Shown: positions 1-32,091 of the stretch, one piece after another
How positions within the stretch are numbered: the first letter of the stretch is position 1
Layout: the number at the start of each line of letters is the position of its first letter
DNA from: a virus
Strand: one strand, 5' to 3'
IMG/VR virus record: IMGVR_UViG_3300020599_000004
Location: 32,001 to 96,000 of that record
DNA: 64,000 nt
The notes under the pieces: model-generated
What the model was told of the DNA's origin: nothing
The model's database searches: none
What the model saw: the letters and a program-made list of their open reading frames with translations, nothing else
Position numbers and translations under genes: made by a program

Positions 1-39
1 TCAGGGGTTAAAGGAAATACCTGATCCATGGCGAGCTTC

Positions 40-276
40 CTAGACGTTATGGCCAAAGGGCCTCTGCCCCATGATTTCCAGAGGACTCGCCCAGAACGGG
101 TAAGAGCCATCGGCCTTTGTTGAGAGCTTATACGCCTGTTCTTGCCCTGGCTTGTGTTCGATCACGTACAGCTTCTGACCGGGTCTTGCGTGCAGGAACG
201 CCGGGTGGTCTCCTGTCGCTGCGGTGATCAATTCTTTCGTTGCCCAGACCTCTTGACCTATTTCGTAAAGAGCCAT
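40..276 (-). CDS. hypothetical protein, 78 aa
   Basis: ORF track; GGGGAG RBS upstream; lies just downstream of the hairpin closing the radical SAM operon. Confidence 0.7.
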   Translation of the reverse strand: MALYEIGQEVWATKELITAATGDHPAFLHARPGQKLYVIEHKPGQEQAYKLSTKADGSYPFWASPLEIMGQRPFGHNV

Positions 277-292
277 GTTACTCCCCTTCTGA

Positions 293-332
293 CATAAAAG
301 GTTGCCGGGGGTAAAGACCCCCGGCTTATGTC
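293..332. terminator. GC-rich hairpin terminator, probably bidirectional
   Basis: GCCGGGGG-taaaga-CCCCCGGC at 304-325, flanked by GACATAA and TTATGTC. Confidence 0.7.
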
Positions 333-334
333 CC

Positions 335-1354
335 CTAATCCTGCTTGACGATACGGTCGAACATCTCTTTTATCCGGCAGTCGCTGCTTAAACCATCGGC
401 AATGAAGCTGTGATGGAGGAAGCAGCGCAGTCCGCACCGCCCGTAGTACTCACACGCTAGGCAGTTATATTTTTCAATGAATGCCATCTCTGCCTTAGCC
501 TTGGCCGCCAACCCTTCTGCCTCATCAAGGATGGCGTTCTTCCCTGCCTCAGACCAACAGGTCGACACGATATTGTCCTTGTTGACAATCTTCGTGGAGC
601 GACAGGTGGTCTCGTTGAACAGGTTTTCACGCCAATCCCTGACAGGCAGGGAGTTGGGGTATTTCTCATTCAGTAACAGGTAGAGGTCACTGATCATGTC
701 CTCGTCCGGCTGAATGTACTCGTACATCGTGGAGGGGATGTAGTGGTCAAAGTACACAGTGAAGTTCTCGCACATCCACTGCATCTCTTTACCTTCCTTC
801 CCCTCCAGGAAGGACTGGATGTTCTGCTTGGTGATCACGACGTTGACCGTGTCGATGTAGTTCTGCAACAGATGGAGATTGCGCAGGAACATCTGACGGT
901 TGTTTTTATCGAATCGACCCGCAGGGTCGTACGAGGTAGCCAGATCAATGATACGGCCTGGGGCGTACTCTCGCAGCAATGCAATCAGACGCATAACCCG
1001 GTTGATGTTCTCGTACGCAAGGTTGGTACCCCACACGAGTTTGACCTCGGTGAAGTGATCCAACACACGTTTACCGGCTTCCAGGTAATGGTCGAACATC
1101 CCATCTGGGATATCGTCACTGAAGAGTTCACCGCCGGTGAAGTTCACTACGTACGGCAAGTCTCCTGGGGTTGAGTCCGTCAGTCGCTTTACCTTGAGCA
1201 GGATTTCCTCACCGGACATCCCCACACGGGAATCGTGGTCCTGATGACAGAACGAGCAGCTCATGTTACACTTCTCGAACAGGATCAGGTGGGCTTCCTT
1301 GTACTTGCCCTTCTTCTGGGCCAGGATATCTACCACGGGAATGAGATCTACCAC
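335..1354 (-). CDS. radical SAM / SPASM-domain protein, 339 aa
   Basis: CNMSCSFC (Cx3Cx2C) at aa 29-36, FTGGELF motif, C-terminal C-x14-C and CLACEYYGRCGLRC (Cx2Cx5Cx3C). Confidence 0.92.
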   Translation of the reverse strand: MVDLIPVVDILAQKKGKYKEAHLILFEKCNMSCSFCHQDHDSRVGMSGEEILLKVKRLTDSTPGDLPYVVNFTGGELFSDDIPDGMFDHYLEAGKRVLDHFTEVKLVWGTNLAYENINRVMRLIALLREYAPGRIIDLATSYDPAGRFDKNNRQMFLRNLHLLQNYIDTVNVVITKQNIQSFLEGKEGKEMQWMCENFTVYFDHYIPSTMYEYIQPDEDMISDLYLLLNEKYPNSLPVRDWRENLFNETTCRSTKIVNKDNIVSTCWSEAGKNAILDEAEGLAAKAKAEMAFIEKYNCLACEYYGRCGLRCFLHHSFIADGLSSDCRIKEMFDRIVKQD

Positions 1355-2409
1355 GTCGACTCCTCCATCAGGTGCTTGAGTTCTTCTTCGTCTGCTCGCA
1401 AGGCGTAACGAATCAGGTTCTCGTCGTACTTGATGGCGTCCATGTGACCCAGCCGGAAACCGTCTTTGCCGTTATCGAAGATGAACCGCAGACGTTTCAG
1501 GCAGAGTTCAGGATCAGTCAAGTCGTCCGTGGATTCAAAGCAGGTCAACAGGTTACGGTTACGTTTCGCCGCGGGCTGATCCCCGCAGTCATCCAAAACC
1601 TTGATGATGCTCTTGACCAGATCGATCATCCACTCGTCTGGCATCTCATATTGGAGTACGTTGGGCAGACGCAACATGGGGTCCGTAAGGTGTCCCAGGT
1701 TCTGGCAGGCCTCAAAGGTGCTAGGCATGTCCAGCAGGGCGTCTAAATTGACGCCTGAGAGGTGCCAACGGGTATCGTCCATGATGACCCGCCCCCAATC
1801 GTCCATCGCGTCATGCGTGTTATTGAGGGCCGTACGGCGTTGCAGGTTCAGTAGGGTGTCAGGGATACTTCCCACAACGCCAAATGCCCGCAGTCGCATG
1901 ATCCGCCATTCCAGGGAAACCTCTTCAGGAGATTCCTCGTAGAGCTTGCGCAGAACAGGGATAATCGGCTCGTCAAAGGCATAAAGGCGCTCGACCACTT
2001 CACGCGTAATCGTCACATCGCGGGTATGGTCCGTGCGATTGTCATGAAGATTAATCGTGCTGGTGTCAAATGTCGCCTTGGCGCAAATGAAGAAGTACTT
2101 GAAATGCTCGTAGTCGATGCCAGGGAACAGGGCCTTTACCATGGCGGCAAAGAGCCGGGTGTAGGTGTCGTCATCAGCATAAATGAAAGTCTTCTGACCG
2201 AATGCAATGGCTCGGTCTATGGCATCACCAAATTCTTTCGGTGACATGGCATCCAGGCTGGTCGCATAACCCGCCTGGAAACCACGGACTCTCACCAGCG
2301 GGTGGTCCACATGTTGGAACCCGCTGTGCTTACTGATGTTGATCTGTGCAACTTCCACCTTGTTCCTGAACTCGGCTTCGACGTAGGTCTTACCGAAGAG
2401 ATGGAACAT
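1348..2409 (-). CDS. hypothetical protein of the radical SAM operon, 353 aa
   Basis: Long ORF overlapping both neighbours (7 and 20 nt); no motif recognised. Confidence 0.85.
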   Translation of the reverse strand: MFHLFGKTYVEAEFRNKVEVAQINISKHSGFQHVDHPLVRVRGFQAGYATSLDAMSPKEFGDAIDRAIAFGQKTFIYADDDTYTRLFAAMVKALFPGIDYEHFKYFFICAKATFDTSTINLHDNRTDHTRDVTITREVVERLYAFDEPIIPVLRKLYEESPEEVSLEWRIMRLRAFGVVGSIPDTLLNLQRRTALNNTHDAMDDWGRVIMDDTRWHLSGVNLDALLDMPSTFEACQNLGHLTDPMLRLPNVLQYEMPDEWMIDLVKSIIKVLDDCGDQPAAKRNRNLLTCFESTDDLTDPELCLKRLRFIFDNGKDGFRLGHMDAIKYDENLIRYALRADEEELKHLMEESTW

Positions 2410-3133
2410 TCAGGCTCCCTGCGATCTGGTCGTATCGACTGTTGTCGGCAGCTGCCGCGGCCAGGAACTGCTGCATGGCTTCTTCCCCTTCCATGGCGAT
2501 GAGGCTACCGATGAACAGGGGATTCTCCTTGACAGCAAAGTAGTAGAACAGGTTCTTGCCCGCGAAGATGTACTTGTTGAAGAGCACCTCGTTGTACGAG
2601 TACTCCTCCGGTCGTACGTCTTCCACCAGCAACGCGAAGAACGGATGCTTGATCAGGTTGACGTAGTTCAGTCCTGCCACACTGATGTTCTCGTCCGCGG
2701 GCAGAGCCTGGACGACTTCATCGAATTCACCCGTGGCATACAGGGCAAATAACGGCAGGTTGCGGATACGCTTCATCCAGGTGTCGAGGATGTCACGGTT
2801 TTCTGCAATGAACTCCGTCGGATCGAACGACAGCAGGGAAGGCTTACCCTGCATGTGCAGCAGGATCTGGACCACCGCATCGTCCAGATCCGGTGCCGTA
2901 GCGATCTGGGGCAGGTGCAGGTAATCCTTTACCAACGGCAGAGCGTCTTCGATGCTCTCCAGGTGCAGGCGGCACTTGATGTCCAAATTGGTCAGGTAGA
3001 CCAGCAGGGACTTGTTACGGAACTTGCTGTTCTTGTAGTCGATGACGAACTGGATGTCTTCTTTCTGTTTACGCACCAGGTCTTGCAGCGGAATCGGCGT
3101 AGTGGTAAACAGTACGGTGGTTTCAGTGTTCAT
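2390..3133 (-). CDS. hypothetical protein of the radical SAM operon, 247 aa
   Basis: ORF with GGGGTG RBS, 10 nt after the upstream stop; no motif recognised. Confidence 0.85.
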   Translation of the reverse strand: MNTETTVLFTTTPIPLQDLVRKQKEDIQFVIDYKNSKFRNKSLLVYLTNLDIKCRLHLESIEDALPLVKDYLHLPQIATAPDLDDAVVQILLHMQGKPSLLSFDPTEFIAENRDILDTWMKRIRNLPLFALYATGEFDEVVQALPADENISVAGLNYVNLIKHPFFALLVEDVRPEEYSYNEVLFNKYIFAGKNLFYYFAVKENPLFIGSLIAMEGEEAMQQFLAAAAADNSRYDQIAGSLNVPSLR

Positions 3134-3143
3134 GGTACACCCC

Positions 3144-3716
3144 TTAGCGACGACCGCGGTTACCGTGGCAGTTGTTGTGGCAGCTGTAGTGGCACACGGT
3201 GTTGGTCAGTGTGCCCACCACTGGACCACCCGCCAGGCTCCACCAGCGGTTGTACATGTTGTTGCAGAGATTGGAGACGTCAGCCTGCTCGACCGAGGTA
3301 CCTGCTGGGATCGCGCCCACCAGGGTGCCTGTGCCACCCACACCCGAGGAGAAGTAACCGATGGCATTGCCGTCGTATTGCGTAGTCGTCCAGGGTGCGG
3401 TGTTGTTGACGTTCTGCACAGGTGGGTTGTAGCCGTTGCCGTTGAAGTAGATCACGATGCGTTTGCGGCACAATACGCCAGAAATCGAGGCCACATACGA
3501 GACCGTATCGTTCACGGCTTGGGCACGGATGCTACCATTGCACCAATCCTGACCGGTGTGGGCACGTCCCAGCGGATTCGGGACATTACCGCCGAACCAA
3601 CCCGGCAGAGACCCACTGGGGTAGTTGTTAGCCCCCCAGGCTACCTGCGCGTTGATCTTGTCAATCAGGAGGCCGTTGAGCAGGTTTACGGCATCCACTT
3701 TACTGATGTTGGCCAT
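3144..3716 (-). CDS. 190-aa G/N/T-rich protein with C-terminal (CHxx)3-RGRR tail; candidate modification substrate
   Basis: Ends CHYSCHNNCHGNRGRR; starts 3 nt after the rSAM stop; substrate role is inference. Confidence 0.8.
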   Translation of the reverse strand: MANISKVDAVNLLNGLLIDKINAQVAWGANNYPSGSLPGWFGGNVPNPLGRAHTGQDWCNGSIRAQAVNDTVSYVASISGVLCRKRIVIYFNGNGYNPPVQNVNNTAPWTTTQYDGNAIGYFSSGVGGTGTLVGAIPAGTSVEQADVSNLCNNMYNRWWSLAGGPVVGTLTNTVCHYSCHNNCHGNRGRR

Positions 3717-3719
3717 ATG

Positions 3720-4751
3720 CTACACCTTGATAATCAAATTTGACTGGGCGCTGCGTCCCGAGAGATACCGAAGGGTATTCTTAAGTCCACCACACCGTCC
3801 GTTCTGCCAGGGTAACCGATGGCAGTCTCCACCACAAAGGTCAAAGACATCGCAATGTAAACAACCTGGCTTAAAGTTCAGCTCACAGGCGATCTCATTG
3901 ATGCGACCATCGGACGCCAGAAACTCCAGAGCCCCCTGGGACAAGTGGGCGTGCTTGTGTTCTGTCGCCATGTTAGGGCAACCACCTAACCAACCGTTGG
4001 AGTTGATCGTCACCAGGTTCTGCTCACAATTGCGGCAGTTGGTGTCGACTTTGACGATACCCAGTTCCAACTTCTGCTTGATGGTGTCTAACGTAGTGAT
4101 CTTGTAATTGGGCTGACGCTCGAAGTACCGCTTGTACAAGGCCAGATACCAGTCGTCTTGCTCTACGTTGTCCGGAAAGACGTCTGGGTTGCACTCGGCG
4201 TTGCCTCCTAAGGTAAGGCGCTCCAGCGCCACCTCATCGATCTCCAGTTGGTCCAGTTGGTCTAAGAACCAGTCTGGTGTGGAAGCCACTAGAGGTCGAG
4301 AAACAGATACCTTCAGGTGGATCGTAACCCCAGCACGTTTGAGCATGCCAAGGTTACGTTTCCACAGATCGACTTGTTTTTGGTTGGACCATCTGATCCA
4401 AGGGTCCCAACTGGTCCCGATGTGACCATCGAAATGAACCAGGATGGTGTCGATAATGGCATCAGTCAACTTGAATGTTAAGTTACTGTTGGCACACATG
4501 GAAACATTCGGGTTGCTCGCAAAGTGATCGATGAAGGCGTTGATCTTGGCGAGCGGTACCAGAAAAGGCTCACCCCCGTGAAACTCAATGTGGTATTGCT
4601 CATCTTCGGGGTATTGGGCCATAAAGTCTTTGACCCAGGAAGCCGTTGCCTCCGGGTCGAATTGGGTCTTATCCCCCTGCTTGCCATTGGTGAAGCAATG
4701 GTCACAGTTCAGGTTGCAAGTGCCCGTGGTCTTAACGTAGATCGTCTTCAT
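3720..4751 (-). CDS. radical SAM / SPASM-domain protein, about 343 aa
   Basis: CNLNCDHC, EFHGGEPF, C-x10-G-x4-C, CLHCDVFDLCGGDC; ATG overlaps the upstream TGA (TGATG). Confidence 0.93.
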   Translation of the reverse strand: MKTIYVKTTGTCNLNCDHCFTNGKQGDKTQFDPEATASWVKDFMAQYPEDEQYHIEFHGGEPFLVPLAKINAFIDHFASNPNVSMCANSNLTFKLTDAIIDTILVHFDGHIGTSWDPWIRWSNQKQVDLWKRNLGMLKRAGVTIHLKVSVSRPLVASTPDWFLDQLDQLEIDEVALERLTLGGNAECNPDVFPDNVEQDDWYLALYKRYFERQPNYKITTLDTIKQKLELGIVKVDTNCRNCEQNLVTINSNGWLGGCPNMATEHKHAHLSQGALEFLASDGRINEIACELNFKPGCLHCDVFDLCGGDCHRLPWQNGRCGGLKNTLRYLSGRSAQSNLIIKV

Positions 4752-5305
4752 CAAAGCTTGTCCACGATGAACTTCTCCAGACCGAAGGAGATCATCAGGG
4801 AATCCTCGTGGTTTATCGCCTGGTGCTTCGTGTTGGCCGGGATGAAGAGGGATTCGCCGGGCTTGAGGGTGTATTCACCGTCAAGGGTTCTGAAGGTCTT
4901 GTTGCCCTTCACCATCAAGACCAGGACATCGTCCGGGTCGGTGTGCATCGGGAAGGACAAGGATTCTGCGGGTGAGATGAACAGATGGGCGGTCACCGGA
5001 CCATCGTGTTCAAAGTAATGCTTCAGGAATTCGCAGCATGCGTACAATTCTGCGGAGAGTTTCTCGTAATGCTCGATCTTGATGGGGCAGTCGATGTGAG
5101 CAATCACATCGGAGCAGCTATGGGCTGTTTCACACCCTGCTTCTCCGAGGACGATCTTGACCATGCCTTCTTCGTAGGCATAGAGACTCTCCAGTACCTG
5201 ACGGTGGTGCATCTGCGCCTCAGTCAAGTGAAAGTTGGCAAAGTCTTGATGCTTTCTCACAGCACTGCGGTCCATTTCCTGTCTCCAAAAGTAGGGGTAG
5301 GCCAC
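4751..5305 (-). CDS. JmjC/cupin Fe(II)-2-oxoglutarate oxygenase, 184 aa
   Basis: H121-T-D123...H161 facial triad, K136, FPMHTDPDDVLVLMVKGNK resembling the ROXA/YcfD-type JmjC core. Confidence 0.82.
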   Translation of the reverse strand: MAYPYFWRQEMDRSAVRKHQDFANFHLTEAQMHHRQVLESLYAYEEGMVKIVLGEAGCETAHSCSDVIAHIDCPIKIEHYEKLSAELYACCEFLKHYFEHDGPVTAHLFISPAESLSFPMHTDPDDVLVLMVKGNKTFRTLDGEYTLKPGESLFIPANTKHQAINHEDSLMISFGLEKFIVDKL

Positions 5306-5367
5306 ATCAATGACCTACCCCTTACTTTCTTACTGCCTATGCCCAGTTCCCTAGCAATAAAAAATTG

Positions 5368-6291
5368 TCAGATAAAGTCCTTAGCCCTACGGCGAGCCGT
5401 GGATGCACTGATACCCAATGCTTCAGCTGCTGCACTCGCATGACTGTACGTCACCCCATCGATCACCAGAGGTTTTCTACTCCTGGCTATCGCCGCATCG
5501 ATCTTACCTCGCACACTGGCCTTATAGTCAGGGTCTGCCCACTTAGCCCGCATGGCTGCCCCATGCCGTTCTCTAAACCCCTCTATCTCCCATGTGGCAG
5601 CACCAGATTTCTTCTGGTTGGCAGCATACTCAGGATCTTCCCAGAGCCTCTTGGTGGCGCTGGATAACTTCTTCAGATACTCAGGGTCAGCTGCCAAGCG
5701 TTTCCCAGTTTCGACCCGTCGGGCTTTCACCGCAGGATCGGCGTAGATGTCCTTGATTTTGGATCGGAAGTCAGGGTCCTGCCATTGCGCCTTAGCTGCA
5801 TCGCTCAGCTTCTTACGGGTGTCTTCGTGAGCAGGGCGATACTCCTCGACCATGTGCCGCTGATTTACGCAGTAGGGGTCATTAAACAGCAGATCAACCA
5901 ATCGCTGCTCGACGGTCCTGGCTTCGCCTTCAGTGTTAGTGAAGAGGTAGATCACATCCGGCAACGCCCGTCTGCGGTCATACTCGCACTGGAGTTTCTG
6001 GTTGTAATGCTTGTTGGCCTTTAAGAAGTAAAGGTGCGTACGAGATCGTACCTGTAGGTAATAAGTGCTGCCGATGTAGAACTTACCACTGTTCCTGAAA
6101 TAGAGCACGTAAACCCCACATCGATCACCGGAGTACCTAATTCCACTGAGAGCAGGTCCCACTCCAGCAAACGCCTCAGGGTAGTTACAGTACTCCTCGA
6201 TCTCGTCATCCACCCAGCACCACAGCAGCCGGTGGAACCCGGCTGCTGTCCATTGCTTCAGATTTTCACCGCAATGCATCAGTTCTAACAT
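5368..6291 (-). CDS. free-standing GIY-YIG homing endonuclease (Seg-like), 307 aa
   Basis: GVYVLY...FYIGST, R-x3-H; W-x-DP helical repeats; C-terminal NUMOD1-like KPLVIDGVTY...AAEALGIS; GGAGA RBS. Confidence 0.88.
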   Translation of the reverse strand: MLELMHCGENLKQWTAAGFHRLLWCWVDDEIEEYCNYPEAFAGVGPALSGIRYSGDRCGVYVLYFRNSGKFYIGSTYYLQVRSRTHLYFLKANKHYNQKLQCEYDRRRALPDVIYLFTNTEGEARTVEQRLVDLLFNDPYCVNQRHMVEEYRPAHEDTRKKLSDAAKAQWQDPDFRSKIKDIYADPAVKARRVETGKRLAADPEYLKKLSSATKRLWEDPEYAANQKKSGAATWEIEGFRERHGAAMRAKWADPDYKASVRGKIDAAIARSRKPLVIDGVTYSHASAAAEALGISASTARRRAKDFI

Positions 6292-6362
6292 AGACAGTTC
6301 TCCATGGGGTTACTTTCGTTCACACCATGGAGATACTTGTAAATAAAAACTGTGCATAACCC

Positions 6363-7811
6363 TTACTGCCACTGTGGTGGCCAGAAAGCGCGCCAACCAC
6401 CAGATACTGCCACGTACGCCACTCCACCAGTCACGTAGACGGAACCATCCACGCCGACAGTGTTCTTCGGCGTATAGCGCGCATCGTGGTCACCGCTGTT
6501 GACGTGGTCGTACATGCCACCTGCCGTGAGCAGGATCGCGTCGCTGTTCTGGTTACGCAGTCGCGTGATGGCATTGGGGATGTTCCCCAAACCGACCTGA
6601 GCCTTAGTGACGTTGTGCGGGTTGTTGGTGTTGTTGATGTGACTCGTCAGGGAATTACCCACCAACTGAGCGATGGCTTGAGCCGTACGCAGCGGGGTCA
6701 TGAAGCGATCGTTCGCTGTACCGGCTTGGGCTTCGGCTTGTGTTGCGGTCAGGAAGTTATCGACATTCCCCAAACCGACCTGAGCCTTGGTCGTCTGGTG
6801 GGGGTTGTTCATGTCCTGCAAGTGAGCTGTCAGCTGGTTACCCACAAGCTGGGTAATGGCCGTTTTGGTCAGAGCAGGGGTCATGAACTTGTCGGTGGCA
6901 GTCCCAGCCTGTGCATCGGCGGTGGTGGCTGTGGCGAAGTTATCCACGTTACCCAGGTTGACTTGGGCTTTGGTTACCTTGTGCGGATTGTTAAAGTCCG
7001 ACAAGTGAGGTGACAAGACACTGTTGGCAATGGCCGTTGCTGTCAGACCCGTCAAGTACGGCGTCATGTACTTGTTGTTGACTGTGGCTGCCTGTGCTTC
7101 AGCGTTGGTGGCGATGCCGAAGTTCTGTACCAGACCCAGTCCCACCTGAGCAGCCGTCACCTGGTGAGGGTTGGAAGTGTCATTGACGTGCTGGTTCAGC
7201 TGGCTCTGGAAGCCATCGATCTGTGCCTGCACCTGATCGATCAGGTACTGGAACTGTTGGCGCAGCTCATCGTGCGATGCGGCATCGCCCTGGAGGATGG
7301 CAACACGGATGTACTCCAGCTGCTCACCGATGTACTCCCAGCCGTAGGTATCCCCCAGATCGTGCAGGTGAGGGGTCGGCGGATAGAGGGCAGGTTTGCC
7401 GATGATGTCGCCCCAGTGCACGGGACGTTCATCCAGGTCCAGAGCCTCGAGCATCTCTTGCAGAGCGTAGACCGACCAGGAGAACTCACCCCCCACCACC
7501 TGATAGGTGATCAGGACTTCGTCACCCACGGTCTGGTCGGTAACGTAGACCACCGAGCAGACGTCCAGACCGGTACGAATGGAAGCTTCTTGGTAGGGTT
7601 GCAGCAGCAGGTACTGATCAACAGGTCTGAGGACTTCCCCAGTGTCGGCACGAGTGACCACAACTGAGTCCGTGTAGAAGGGACCACAGTTGGGCACGAA
7701 TGCCCGCTCTTTCGTCGAACCGATCGTGTGGGGTTCGTTGATGACAAGGTTAGTCGGAGACTTTCCCGTCAGATCAAGCGGGTATTTGAAAAGAAGAGGC
7801 TTGGTACCCAT
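6363..7811 (-). CDS. tail fibre-like virion protein, 482 aa
   Basis: Four NPHxxTxAQVxLG repeats; N-terminal YPLDLTGKSPTNLV shared with 14787..16967. Confidence 0.8.
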   Translation of the reverse strand: MGTKPLLFKYPLDLTGKSPTNLVINEPHTIGSTKERAFVPNCGPFYTDSVVVTRADTGEVLRPVDQYLLLQPYQEASIRTGLDVCSVVYVTDQTVGDEVLITYQVVGGEFSWSVYALQEMLEALDLDERPVHWGDIIGKPALYPPTPHLHDLGDTYGWEYIGEQLEYIRVAILQGDAASHDELRQQFQYLIDQVQAQIDGFQSQLNQHVNDTSNPHQVTAAQVGLGLVQNFGIATNAEAQAATVNNKYMTPYLTGLTATAIANSVLSPHLSDFNNPHKVTKAQVNLGNVDNFATATTADAQAGTATDKFMTPALTKTAITQLVGNQLTAHLQDMNNPHQTTKAQVGLGNVDNFLTATQAEAQAGTANDRFMTPLRTAQAIAQLVGNSLTSHINNTNNPHNVTKAQVGLGNIPNAITRLRNQNSDAILLTAGGMYDHVNSGDHDARYTPKNTVGVDGSVYVTGGVAYVAVSGGWRAFWPPQWQ

Positions 7812-8040
7812 CCTTAAGCTCCCGTGGGTTCTGAAACCCCAACTACGAAGGTAGAAGTGGGGTACTGTGTTTGGTAAAAATTTACCGTATGTTCAAAGGA
7901 TTTGAGGAAAACGCTTCCAAGAATCTCTGGTTAAAAACAGAGTAAGGATAAGGGCTCTTTTGCCCTTATCCTTACTCTTCCTTATTCTTCTTTTCTCCTT
8001 AGGTAGGTTTATCTACCTAAGGGTACTGGGAATGATCGAC

Positions 8041-31239: not shown

Positions 31240-32091
31240 TTACTTGGACAGGATGTTGGTCAGGTTCTTGTAGGAGTCATCCACCGAGGTGGTAAATGCC
31301 TGCAAGAAGTAACCCACTGTGCTGTAGAACTCGACTTCACGGGCCATGAAGTAGGTCAGGTCAGTCAGTTGTTTCAGCACAGGTCCGGAGACTTGGTAGG
31401 TTTCCGGGTCTTCCTTGATGTTGGTGATCAACTTGTCGAGCAGCACCGAGATGTCGGTGACTTGCTTGAGCAGTTCCTTACGGTTGATCGAGGCGTACTT
31501 GCCGTTCACATCGTTGAGGTTCCGTGTCACCATGGGCAGATCGCCATGACGCTTGATCACAGCGCCGTAGGTGGACTCGGTTTTTCCTGACTTGTCGAAG
31601 CTGTTTGCGAACGCTTGCTTCAGACCGTCCAGGTCGGGGGCCTTGTAGCGGGCCAGGTCTGGAGTGAAGGAAACCGCGCGCAGCGCATCAGGACGCATCA
31701 GTAGTGTCCCGATCCAGGTTTCGAAGGGTTTAAGCAGGCCTTTCTGGAGATCATCCAGAACCTTCTGTGCTTGCGCCAGAAGCTCGATGTACTGCAACCA
31801 GGTGGTGTTGAAGCCCACCGGTACGAAAACGCGCAGAGGAGCAGCAGAGACGTAATCCACGTCACGCATCAGGTGCTCCAGCTTCCGGCTGTCGACCAGC
31901 TGAGGCTTAGGAGACGCAGGACTCAGCACGCCAGCAATGAATTGCTTGGCTCCGTCCAGGAATTCCGGAAGACGACCCGTGAACGCATTGAGCGTTTGCG
32001 AGACGTTCAGGGCTTCCAGGCCGATGACAGTACGCTGATGGGACAGGCTCTCGAAAGTTACCTGCTCATCAGTGGCAAAAAGGTCTAACAT
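31240..32091 (-). CDS. probable internal head protein, 283 aa
   Basis: Start reassigned to MLDLFA (AGGAG RBS); N-terminal GLE-AL matching the S/A/G-X-E prohead protease site. Confidence 0.6.
   Translation of the reverse strand: MLDLFATDEQVTFESLSHQRTVIGLEALNVSQTLNAFTGRLPEFLDGAKQFIAGVLSPASPKPQLVDSRKLEHLMRDVDYVSAAPLRVFVPVGFNTTWLQYIELLAQAQKVLDDLQKGLLKPFETWIGTLLMRPDALRAVSFTPDLARYKAPDLDGLKQAFANSFDKSGKTESTYGAVIKRHGDLPMVTRNLNDVNGKYASINRKELLKQVTDISVLLDKLITNIKEDPETYQVSGPVLKQLTDLTYFMAREVEFYSTVGYFLQAFTTSVDDSYKNLTNILSK

Follow-up and report, generated by a model that had tools for sequence, protein, structure and literature searches.

A radical SAM and oxygenase cassette beside the tail-fibre genes of a phage, a candidate maturation system for a virion protein with a Cys-His tail

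Maturation by radical S-adenosylmethionine (SAM) enzymes is known for small peptides, for a few enzymes and, since 2026, for one bacterial defence effector; for a protein of a virus particle no earlier description was found. In the bacterial HXS system, HxsA is matured by the radical SAM proteins HxsB and HxsC together with HxsD, and the basic HxS repeats of HxsA bind DNA (Li et al., Nat Commun 2026, PMC13128918). The triceptide (three-residue cyclophane) maturases YhhB, HaaB and HtkB, which are radical SAM/SPASM enzymes, work iteratively on aromatic-X-X motifs (among them HNR, HAA and HTK), joining His-C2 to the C-beta of residue 3 (PMC11499958). Among phages, radical SAM gene cassettes were noted among the tail-fibre genes of the pelagimyophage host recognition cluster (Zaragoza-Solas et al. 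2020, PMC7029224), the only paper of this kind found in our literature search. The pelagimyophage cassettes are mentioned there without substrate, motif or function, and are compared here by description alone (PMC7029224). Here we analyse a gene cassette of a jumbo phage in a stretch of 64,000 nucleotides (nt), positions 32,001 to 96,000 of the IMG/VR virus record IMGVR_UViG_3300020599_000004, which is called the window in the following. The cassette is probably a maturation system for a fibre-associated virion protein bearing a Cys-His tail.

The part of the cassette located in the window consists of six genes on the minus strand. The open reading frame (ORF) list agrees with the coordinates in the first-pass annotation of this DNA, which had described these genes as a dual radical SAM operon. 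The five junctions agree as well, namely a 1-nt overlap, a 3-nt gap, a 10-nt gap, a 20-nt overlap and a 7-nt overlap; the likely ATG start of the second gene at 4751 gives the 1-nt TGATG overlap with the cupin gene. Lengths of proteins are given in amino acids (aa), and 2-oxoglutarate is abbreviated as 2OG. The genes of the cassette and its conserved upstream neighbour are as follows.

6363-7811, minus strand: fibre-like virion structural protein, 482 aa, conserved upstream neighbour of the cassette
4751-5305, minus strand: JmjC/cupin Fe(II)/2OG oxygenase, 184 aa, first gene of the cassette
3720-4754, minus strand: rSAM1, radical SAM/SPASM enzyme, 344 aa, encoded directly before the tail protein
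3144-3716, minus strand: Cys-His-tailed protein, presumed substrate, 190 aa, C-terminus TNTVCHYSCHNNCHGNRGRR
2390-3133, minus strand: helper protein of unknown fold, 247 aa, core cassette member
1348-2409, minus strand: protein without recognisable family, 353 aa
335-1354, minus strand: rSAM2, radical SAM/SPASM-type enzyme, 339 aa, last gene of the first sub-operon
G000:C1 25381-31799, outside the window: rest of the cassette, comprising rSAM3 and rSAM4 (both SPASM-type), two degenerate radical SAM proteins, a 150-aa protein, two 2OG-Fe(II) oxygenases and a 244-aa protein

The flank beyond position 1 of the window was examined on the same contig (G000:C1 18001-38000). The cassette does not end at the hairpin that was thought to close it, and resumes outside the window after a gap of 535 nt. 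In total it comprises ~14 genes, including six radical SAM enzymes and three Fe(II) oxygenases, and the six genes of the window correspond to the first sub-operon. The term dual is likewise too narrow, since the cassette encodes six proteins with CxxxCxxC, four of them outside the window.

In the 190-aa protein, residues 1-174 form a folded alpha/beta domain and residues 175-190 (nt 3147-3194) a flexible tail, CHYSCHNNCHGNRGRR. In the AlphaFold2 (AF2) model, the predicted local distance difference test (pLDDT) value is 77 for the domain and <50 for the tail. The tail is predicted to be disordered beyond the folded domain, as would suit an exposed substrate segment carried by a folded protein. 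The (CHxx)3 motif noted in the first-pass annotation is present, with RGRR after it. Across 17 homologues of 29-66% identity, TNTVCHxxCHxxCHxxRGRR is invariant; the last 20 residues are still invariant where the domain is down to ~30% identity and the enzymes are 60-75% identical. A profile search against 1.84 billion representatives yielded a family of 541 clusters at 50% identity. The C-terminal CHxxCHxxCHxxRxRR was found in 135 out of 162 family representatives (the best-scoring clusters plus the first homologues), and the remainder consists mostly of close variants, in which there are two or four units, a Gly is added, Tyr stands in place of His, or the third Cys is missing. The number of CH units ranges from 2 to 14 across relatives with the enzyme set unchanged, as expected for iterative modification of repeats. 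Loci L056 (7817-8515, plus strand), L057 (minus strand) and L034 (minus strand) encode 13-14 units, in blocks split by NVPV or NVV. The units of the phage in the window are H-Y-S, H-N-N and H-G-N; across the family this third residue can be S, N or A, and the third X2 position is an extra Cys in 14 out of 50 tails. Two motifs are conserved in the domain, WGTNNYPxxSLPGWF and RKRIVIY. Searches of Pfam and NCBIfam and PADLOC-independent searches detected no family for this protein, apart from a weak PHROG match to its tail, and fold searches with its model (Foldseek PDB; VIA wide, best Z 4.7) revealed no convincing known fold. Foldseek analysis in BFVD returned family members only. Inspection of the N-terminal sequence showed no visible signal peptide.

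The genes of the cassette occur together. In a collection of 50,697 cultured-phage records, rSAM1, rSAM3 and the tail protein each match exactly the same 15 records, and no homologous radical SAM gene without the CHxx protein was found there. Wherever a fetched metagenomic locus has sufficient flank, the order is cupin, rSAM1, tail protein, 247-aa protein and rSAM2; with few exceptions rSAM1 lies immediately before the tail protein in flanked loci, and rSAM2 is syntenic in all loci. Phages with this same gene order are pPa_SNUABM_DT01 of Pseudomonas, the Ralstonia and Burkholderia phages of the RSL2/RSF1/FLC/S13 group, Atu_ph07 of Agrobacterium and Phosso of Sinorhizobium. With few exceptions the gene for the 247-aa protein lies beside that for the tail protein, also in Atu_ph07, in S13 and on a Pseudobdellovibrio contig. 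The 353-aa protein is syntenic with 27-46% identity in DT01-like loci and 25-29% in a few distant ones. Strict synteny in relatives thus bears out that the six genes belong together, although they are only the first half of the cassette. Megablast of the region against cultured phages gave no near relative. Papers on cassette-bearing phages merely list 'six radical SAM genes', a cupin and 2OG oxygenases, and the literature search revealed no account of the tail motif or of the function of the cassette.

Evidence that a member of the tail-protein family is present in virions comes from Atu_ph07, whose particles were analysed by gel-slice electrospray ionisation tandem mass spectrometry (Attai et al. 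2018, PMC6102473). In Table S5 of that study, gp170 appears as a hypothetical protein of 31.89 kDa, detected by 8 unique peptides that cover 35% of it; none of the enzymes encoded next to it (gp165-169, gp171 and gp172) is listed (PMC6102473). The protein was found in gel fragments 1-9 with the peak in fragment 1, which is the top slice, whereas other proteins of 30-32 kDa peak in fragments 7-8 (PMC6102473, Table S5). In our analysis, gp170 is the Cys-His-tailed homologue, ending CHSSCHASCHNSRSRR. The gene numbering was confirmed, because for gp170, gp176 and gp177 the calculated and the published masses agree exactly.

The cassette is located between fibre genes and baseplate or lysin genes, on the late strand. 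The 482-aa fibre-like protein possesses NPHxVTxAQVGLG-type repeats and matches phrog_2163 at E 7e-141, as well as many tail-fibre PHROGs. A homologue of it (34-59% identity) is encoded just upstream of the cupin in 25 out of 26 loci (L001-L027), the exception being that of Atu_ph07 (L003).

The peptide pattern from A1 had no match in bacterial genomes. A looser DNA pattern for the tail gave ten stretches in bacterial assemblies, three of them genuine; the other seven were rejected as chance matches, either out-of-frame CHCH or Arg-rich low-complexity sequence. In a Pseudobdellovibrio metagenome-assembled genome (MAG), the cassette lies in a 299-kb contig with bacterial-type genes on its flanks, namely the type IV pilus genes PilQ and PilM, ABC transporters and carbamoyl-phosphate synthase (CarAB). 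Beside it, a gene on the plus strand (L080 12596-13642) codes for a protein with an endosialidase-chaperone (Peptidase_S74) fibre domain and, at its N-terminus, a methylation motif of the type IV pilin kind. In a Bacteriovoracaceae MAG, an S74-domain gene (L081 5895-7325, plus strand) directly adjoins the cassette and is followed by FeoB, likewise bacterial in type. The distance between cassette and S74 fibre-domain gene in these two contigs of predatory bacteria is 0.6 kb in the former and nil in the latter. The third genuine match, L034, is a 4.3-kb contig of a Dysosmobacter segnis assembly with enzymes 62-67% identical to those of the phage in the window; this contig is probably phage DNA. 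Fibre-type proteins hence accompany the cassette both in phages and, as far as two MAG contigs show, in predatory bacteria. In Pseudobdellovibrio the cassette contains, in addition, a B12-binding radical SAM gene.

Regarding the enzymes, the JmjC assignment of the first gene holds: the cupin scores 40.3 bits with PF08007 (JmjC_2; cut-off 22) and 38.5 bits with Cupin_2. In 36 homologues, residues H121-x-D123, H161 and K136 show a conservation of 95% or more, and score, iron triad and 2OG-binding Lys agree with membership in the JmjC_2/ribosomal oxygenase family. The histidyl hydroxylase MINA53 was also matched, though weakly (E 2.7e-4). The radical SAM/SPASM assignment of the two enzymes in the window is supported at the level of motifs, both proteins possessing CxxxCxxC and a C-terminal CX2CX5CX3C. 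In rSAM1, CNLNCDHC is present at residues 13-20, and C243, C259, C298, C301, C307, C311 and C321, a SPASM-type auxiliary-cluster pattern, are invariant in 25 homologues; rSAM2 possesses CNMSCSFC and the C-terminal CLACEYYGRCGLRC. With PF04055 (threshold 29.5 bits), rSAM3 (53.0) and rSAM4 (41.3) pass, and rSAM1 (25.8) and rSAM2 (21.6) remain below; rSAM1 passes Fer4_12 (25.3 against 22). The SPASM model TIGR04085 gives 23.1 bits for rSAM1 and 22.5 bits for rSAM3 (cut-off 27). Both rSAM1 (1e-52) and rSAM2 (5e-32) match phrog_1802, and PDB sequence searches with these two proteins gave generic N-terminal matches only. The two degenerate radical SAM proteins have no Pfam match and resemble viral radical SAM clusters in the Atlas at 0.97. 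By these sequence features, the radical SAM enzymes of the cassette resemble the SPASM branch acting on peptides and proteins.

Among the remaining proteins, the 247-aa protein matches phrog_20767 at 1.5e-33 and was modelled by AF2 with a pLDDT of 82. Comparison of its homologues revealed no invariant Cys, His or Asp, and fold searches with its model found no convincing known fold (best Z 4.7). By analogy with HxsD, the helper of HxsC, it may be a non-catalytic helper. For the 353-aa protein no Pfam or PHROG match was detected, and the Atlas search gave sub-threshold leads only.

The closest known system is HXS. Similar to HXS, the cassette combines several radical SAM enzymes with a small helper, and the protein to be matured would be a folded protein instead of a short peptide, with short His-containing tandem repeats rich in basic residues; in HXS the modification occurs at the His/Ser motif. 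However, HXS is a bacterial defence system, whereas the cassette lies in a phage virion module. Its repeat is Cys-His-x-Ser/Asn at the extreme C-terminus, followed by RGRR, and each unit has an invariant Cys ahead, which is not described for HxsA. The cassette also comprises six radical SAM enzymes and three oxygenases, and no peptidoglycan-binding domain. Membership in HXS (TIGR03976-03979) fails, with 27.2 bits against 370 for HxsB and 12.8-20.6 against 267.9 for HxsC. The cassette is like HXS in logic and unlike it in every component.

The triceptide maturases resemble the cassette in that the tail offers H-x-S/N/A three times, with His occasionally replaced by Tyr. YhhB (1.8e-13) is the second-best NCBIfam match of rSAM1, after PapB (1e-13, full length), both far below the cut-offs. 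Nevertheless, the Cys before each His has no counterpart in triceptides, and the substrate here would be a 190-aa virion protein. Membership of rSAM1 among the triceptide synthases fails (YhhB NF041707, 50.2 bits against 445; FxsB TIGR04269, 41 against 370). With FxsB, AmcB, DynA and YhhB, rSAM1 aligns in part, with scores far below the curated cut-offs. Residues 5-313 of rSAM1 align with positions 5-318 of the 330 of the model of PapB, the maturase of freyrasin (NF047865; E 1e-13). Tandem repeats with regularly spaced Cys are the donor pattern of the ranthipeptide and sactipeptide thioether families. The cassette, however, shows neither the CxxxD acceptor Asp nor a leader or RiPP recognition element (RRE) architecture, RiPP standing for ribosomally synthesised and post-translationally modified peptide; rSAM1 reaches 51.2 bits against 340, and no Asp is present at i+4 in the tail.

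The anaerobic sulfatase-maturating enzymes (anSME, TIGR03942) are minimal radical SAM/SPASM enzymes acting on Cys or Ser in a folded protein. Residues 12-336 of rSAM3 align with positions 2-344 of the 363 of this model, and rSAM3 also aligns over its full length with DynA, in both cases far below the curated cut-offs. Membership fails for both rSAM1 (39.6 bits) and rSAM3 (37.1 bits against 349), and the tail has no C/S-x-P/A-x-R target. No chemistry can be transferred from any of the named maturases, because all scores are far below the curated cut-offs. The JmjC ribosomal oxygenases (YcfD/RoxA, MINA53 and NO66; PF08007) hydroxylate His or Arg of proteins, and both residues are invariant in the tail. 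Similar to these enzymes, the cupin keeps the HxD...H triad and the Lys, but with only 184 aa it lacks the dimerisation and winged-helix domains.

Taken together, synteny, co-occurrence and the invariance of the tail make the tail the most likely substrate of the enzymes. As to a dedicated modification pathway, proposed in the first-pass annotation, these same features speak for it, while the enzymes stay below the cut-offs of all named maturase families. The further proposal of a modified, possibly metal-binding virion component is supported as regards the virion by the homologue in Atu_ph07 particles and the adjoining fibre genes; the protein would be modified, and it may or may not hold metal. 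According to the reading we favour, the 190-aa protein would belong to the virion structure, in the region of the tail fibres or the baseplate. Late in infection, cytoplasmic radical SAM/SPASM enzymes would modify its exposed C-terminal tail, (Cys-His-x-Ser/Asn)3-Arg-Gly-Arg-Arg, one repeat after another, with rSAM1 probably the first to act. The JmjC-type and 2OG oxygenases would join in, the JmjC enzyme possibly as a hydroxylase of the invariant His or Arg residues. The finished protein would then be built into the virion, and the enzymes would be left behind. By analogy with the systems described above, the most likely chemistry is a Cys thioether and/or a His(C2)-to-C-beta cyclophane cross-link, together with hydroxylation of His or Arg. 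We infer a role of the matured protein in adsorption or fibre stability.

Several points weigh against maturation of a fibre-associated virion protein. For no member is a mass shift, a cross-link or a contact of enzyme and substrate on record, and a complex prediction for rSAM1 and the tail protein scored 0.01, which counts neither for nor against binding. Every named maturase family is matched at a score far short of its curated cut-off. Six radical SAM enzymes and three oxygenases seem many for a tail of 16 residues. The detection in virions concerns gp170 only, a homologue that is distant (Foldseek E 9e-5) and has the tail and the synteny in common. The Atu_ph07 virions were purified with polyethylene glycol, and peptides of RecA-like, single-stranded DNA-binding and ribonucleotide reductase proteins were present as well (PMC6102473). 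The loading buffer as described lists no reducing agent (PMC6102473); therefore, the gp170 of high apparent mass could be disulfide-linked instead of enzymatically cross-linked.

Other explanations assign a different role to the tail or to the enzymes. The tail may be a metal- or iron-sulfur-binding site, at a trimer axis or as a cluster carrier, with the enzymes acting on a small molecule, cofactor or glycan for the virion and the 190-aa protein serving as scaffold, carrier or plain metalloprotein; we regard this as unlikely. Cys and His at i, i+4 and i+8 are classical ligands, to which the frequent extra Cys at the third X2 position would add, and the gp37 fibre tip of T4 binds iron via His repeats; the number of enzymes for such a short tail also fits this possibility. 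Against it stand the range of repeat numbers served by one enzyme set, the replacement of His by Tyr in several members, and the similarity of the enzymes to peptide or protein maturases instead of cofactor or sugar enzymes. The position of rSAM1 directly before the tail protein argues in the same direction, and the core cassette contains no sugar, lipid or nucleotide enzyme. An aromatic cross-link suits the tail better than a fixed metal site, because of the rare His-to-Tyr variants and those that lost the third Cys. That the enzymes modify nucleotides, DNA or a cofactor and have nothing to do with the tail protein is hardly credible. Radical SAM genes of phages are often QueE, NrdG or viperin-like, weak N-terminal matches to MoaA, QueE, NrdG and viperin were detected, and genes annotated as dihydrofolate reductase are interspersed in RSL2-like phages. 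These matches, however, cover only the generic cluster-binding stretch, far below the cut-offs; the enzymes possess SPASM auxiliary-cluster motifs, co-occur exactly with the tail protein, and lie within a virion module.

Two further possibilities accept the maturation and differ in the fate of the product. A non-structural effector similar to HxsA, acting in superinfection exclusion or counter-defence, whose matured basic tail binds DNA or a host factor and whose association with virions is incidental, has a precedent in HxsA itself, a repeat protein matured by radical SAM enzymes with DNA-binding basic HxS repeats, and the tail ends with an invariant RGRR. We consider it improbable, since the coverage of gp170 in virions is strong while the enzymes are absent, and since the cassette, on the late strand, constantly has fibre genes on one side and baseplate or lysin genes on the other, with fibre-like genes adjoining it even in bacteria; the N-terminus without a visible signal peptide also counts against it. 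Highly improbable is a true RiPP, in which the domain of 174 residues would act as an outsized leader, and the modified tail of 16-20 residues would be cut off and released at lysis as a bioactive peptide. The enzyme families are typical of RiPP pathways, and long folded leaders exist, such as those of the nitrile-hydratase-like type. Nevertheless, no protease or exporter is recognisable among the ~14 genes, the domain itself is conserved, and a homologue with 35% coverage was found in virions; the RiPP-like alternative of the first-pass annotation, taken as a released peptide, has nothing in its favour.

Beside the genes described above, the following features were found at the borders of the cassette.

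5368-6291, minus strand: GIY-YIG homing endonuclease, 307 aa, with an I-TevI-like DNA-binding end, between the fibre gene and the cupin
304-325, minus strand: terminator-like hairpin between the two halves of the cassette
40-276, minus strand: 78-aa ORF in the variable gap, phrog_21763 at 6.6e-5
G000:C1 24698-25381 (L004 6698-7381), minus strand: 227-aa protein directly after the cassette, with a peptidoglycan-binding N-terminus and matches to phrog_4928 and phrog_196 (baseplate-hub, lysin)

The hairpin at 304-325 was identified correctly in the first-pass annotation; it possesses a 9-bp stem with 8 G-C pairs and a 4-nt loop, and the T-rich tail AACCTTTTAT follows. The gap between rSAM2 and rSAM3 contains variable small ORFs in relatives, or 1.5-2.3 kb of extra DNA (L018, L019, L020 and L025), and because of these insertions it looks like an insertion hotspot. 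The 78-aa ORF is probably not a core part of the cassette. The homing endonuclease at the cassette is present only in this phage, and no other fetched locus has one anywhere. A perfect 17-bp inverted repeat with a 6-nt loop, located at 7939-7978 between the 963-aa and the 482-aa fibre genes, scores terminator-like on both strands.

DNA near-identical to positions 1-6400 of the window was detected in soil and wastewater metagenomes of several studies. A wastewater contig from 2025 spans this region with ~40 substitutions and small deletions clustered at 5338-5367. Diversifying selection in the tail protein relative to the wastewater variant (X3) was considered and rejected, all eight differences being at third codon positions. 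Short contigs with 100% identity to parts of 146-349, 2122-2805 and 3387-3903 were present in two soil metatranscriptome libraries, which is no proof of transcription.

The cassette is widespread and unstudied. It is carried by isolated, culturable phages of Pseudomonas, Ralstonia, Burkholderia, Agrobacterium and Sinorhizobium, and therefore maturation of the tail protein is directly testable. More tentatively, jumbo phages, other cassette-bearing phages and predatory Bdellovibrio-like bacteria might share an unrecognised finishing of a fibre-associated adhesion protein, whose ribosomal (Cys-His-x-Ser)n-RGRR tail would be made polycyclic by the radical SAM enzymes and iron oxygenases, possibly metal-holding or intermolecularly cross-linked, for recognising or holding the host or prey; we think this broader proposal more doubtful than probable. 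If true, the maturation of the tail protein would represent a new enzymatic step in phage assembly or host recognition and a new cross-linking chemistry on a Cys-His motif, and would link phage fibres with the prey-recognition fibres of predatory bacteria.

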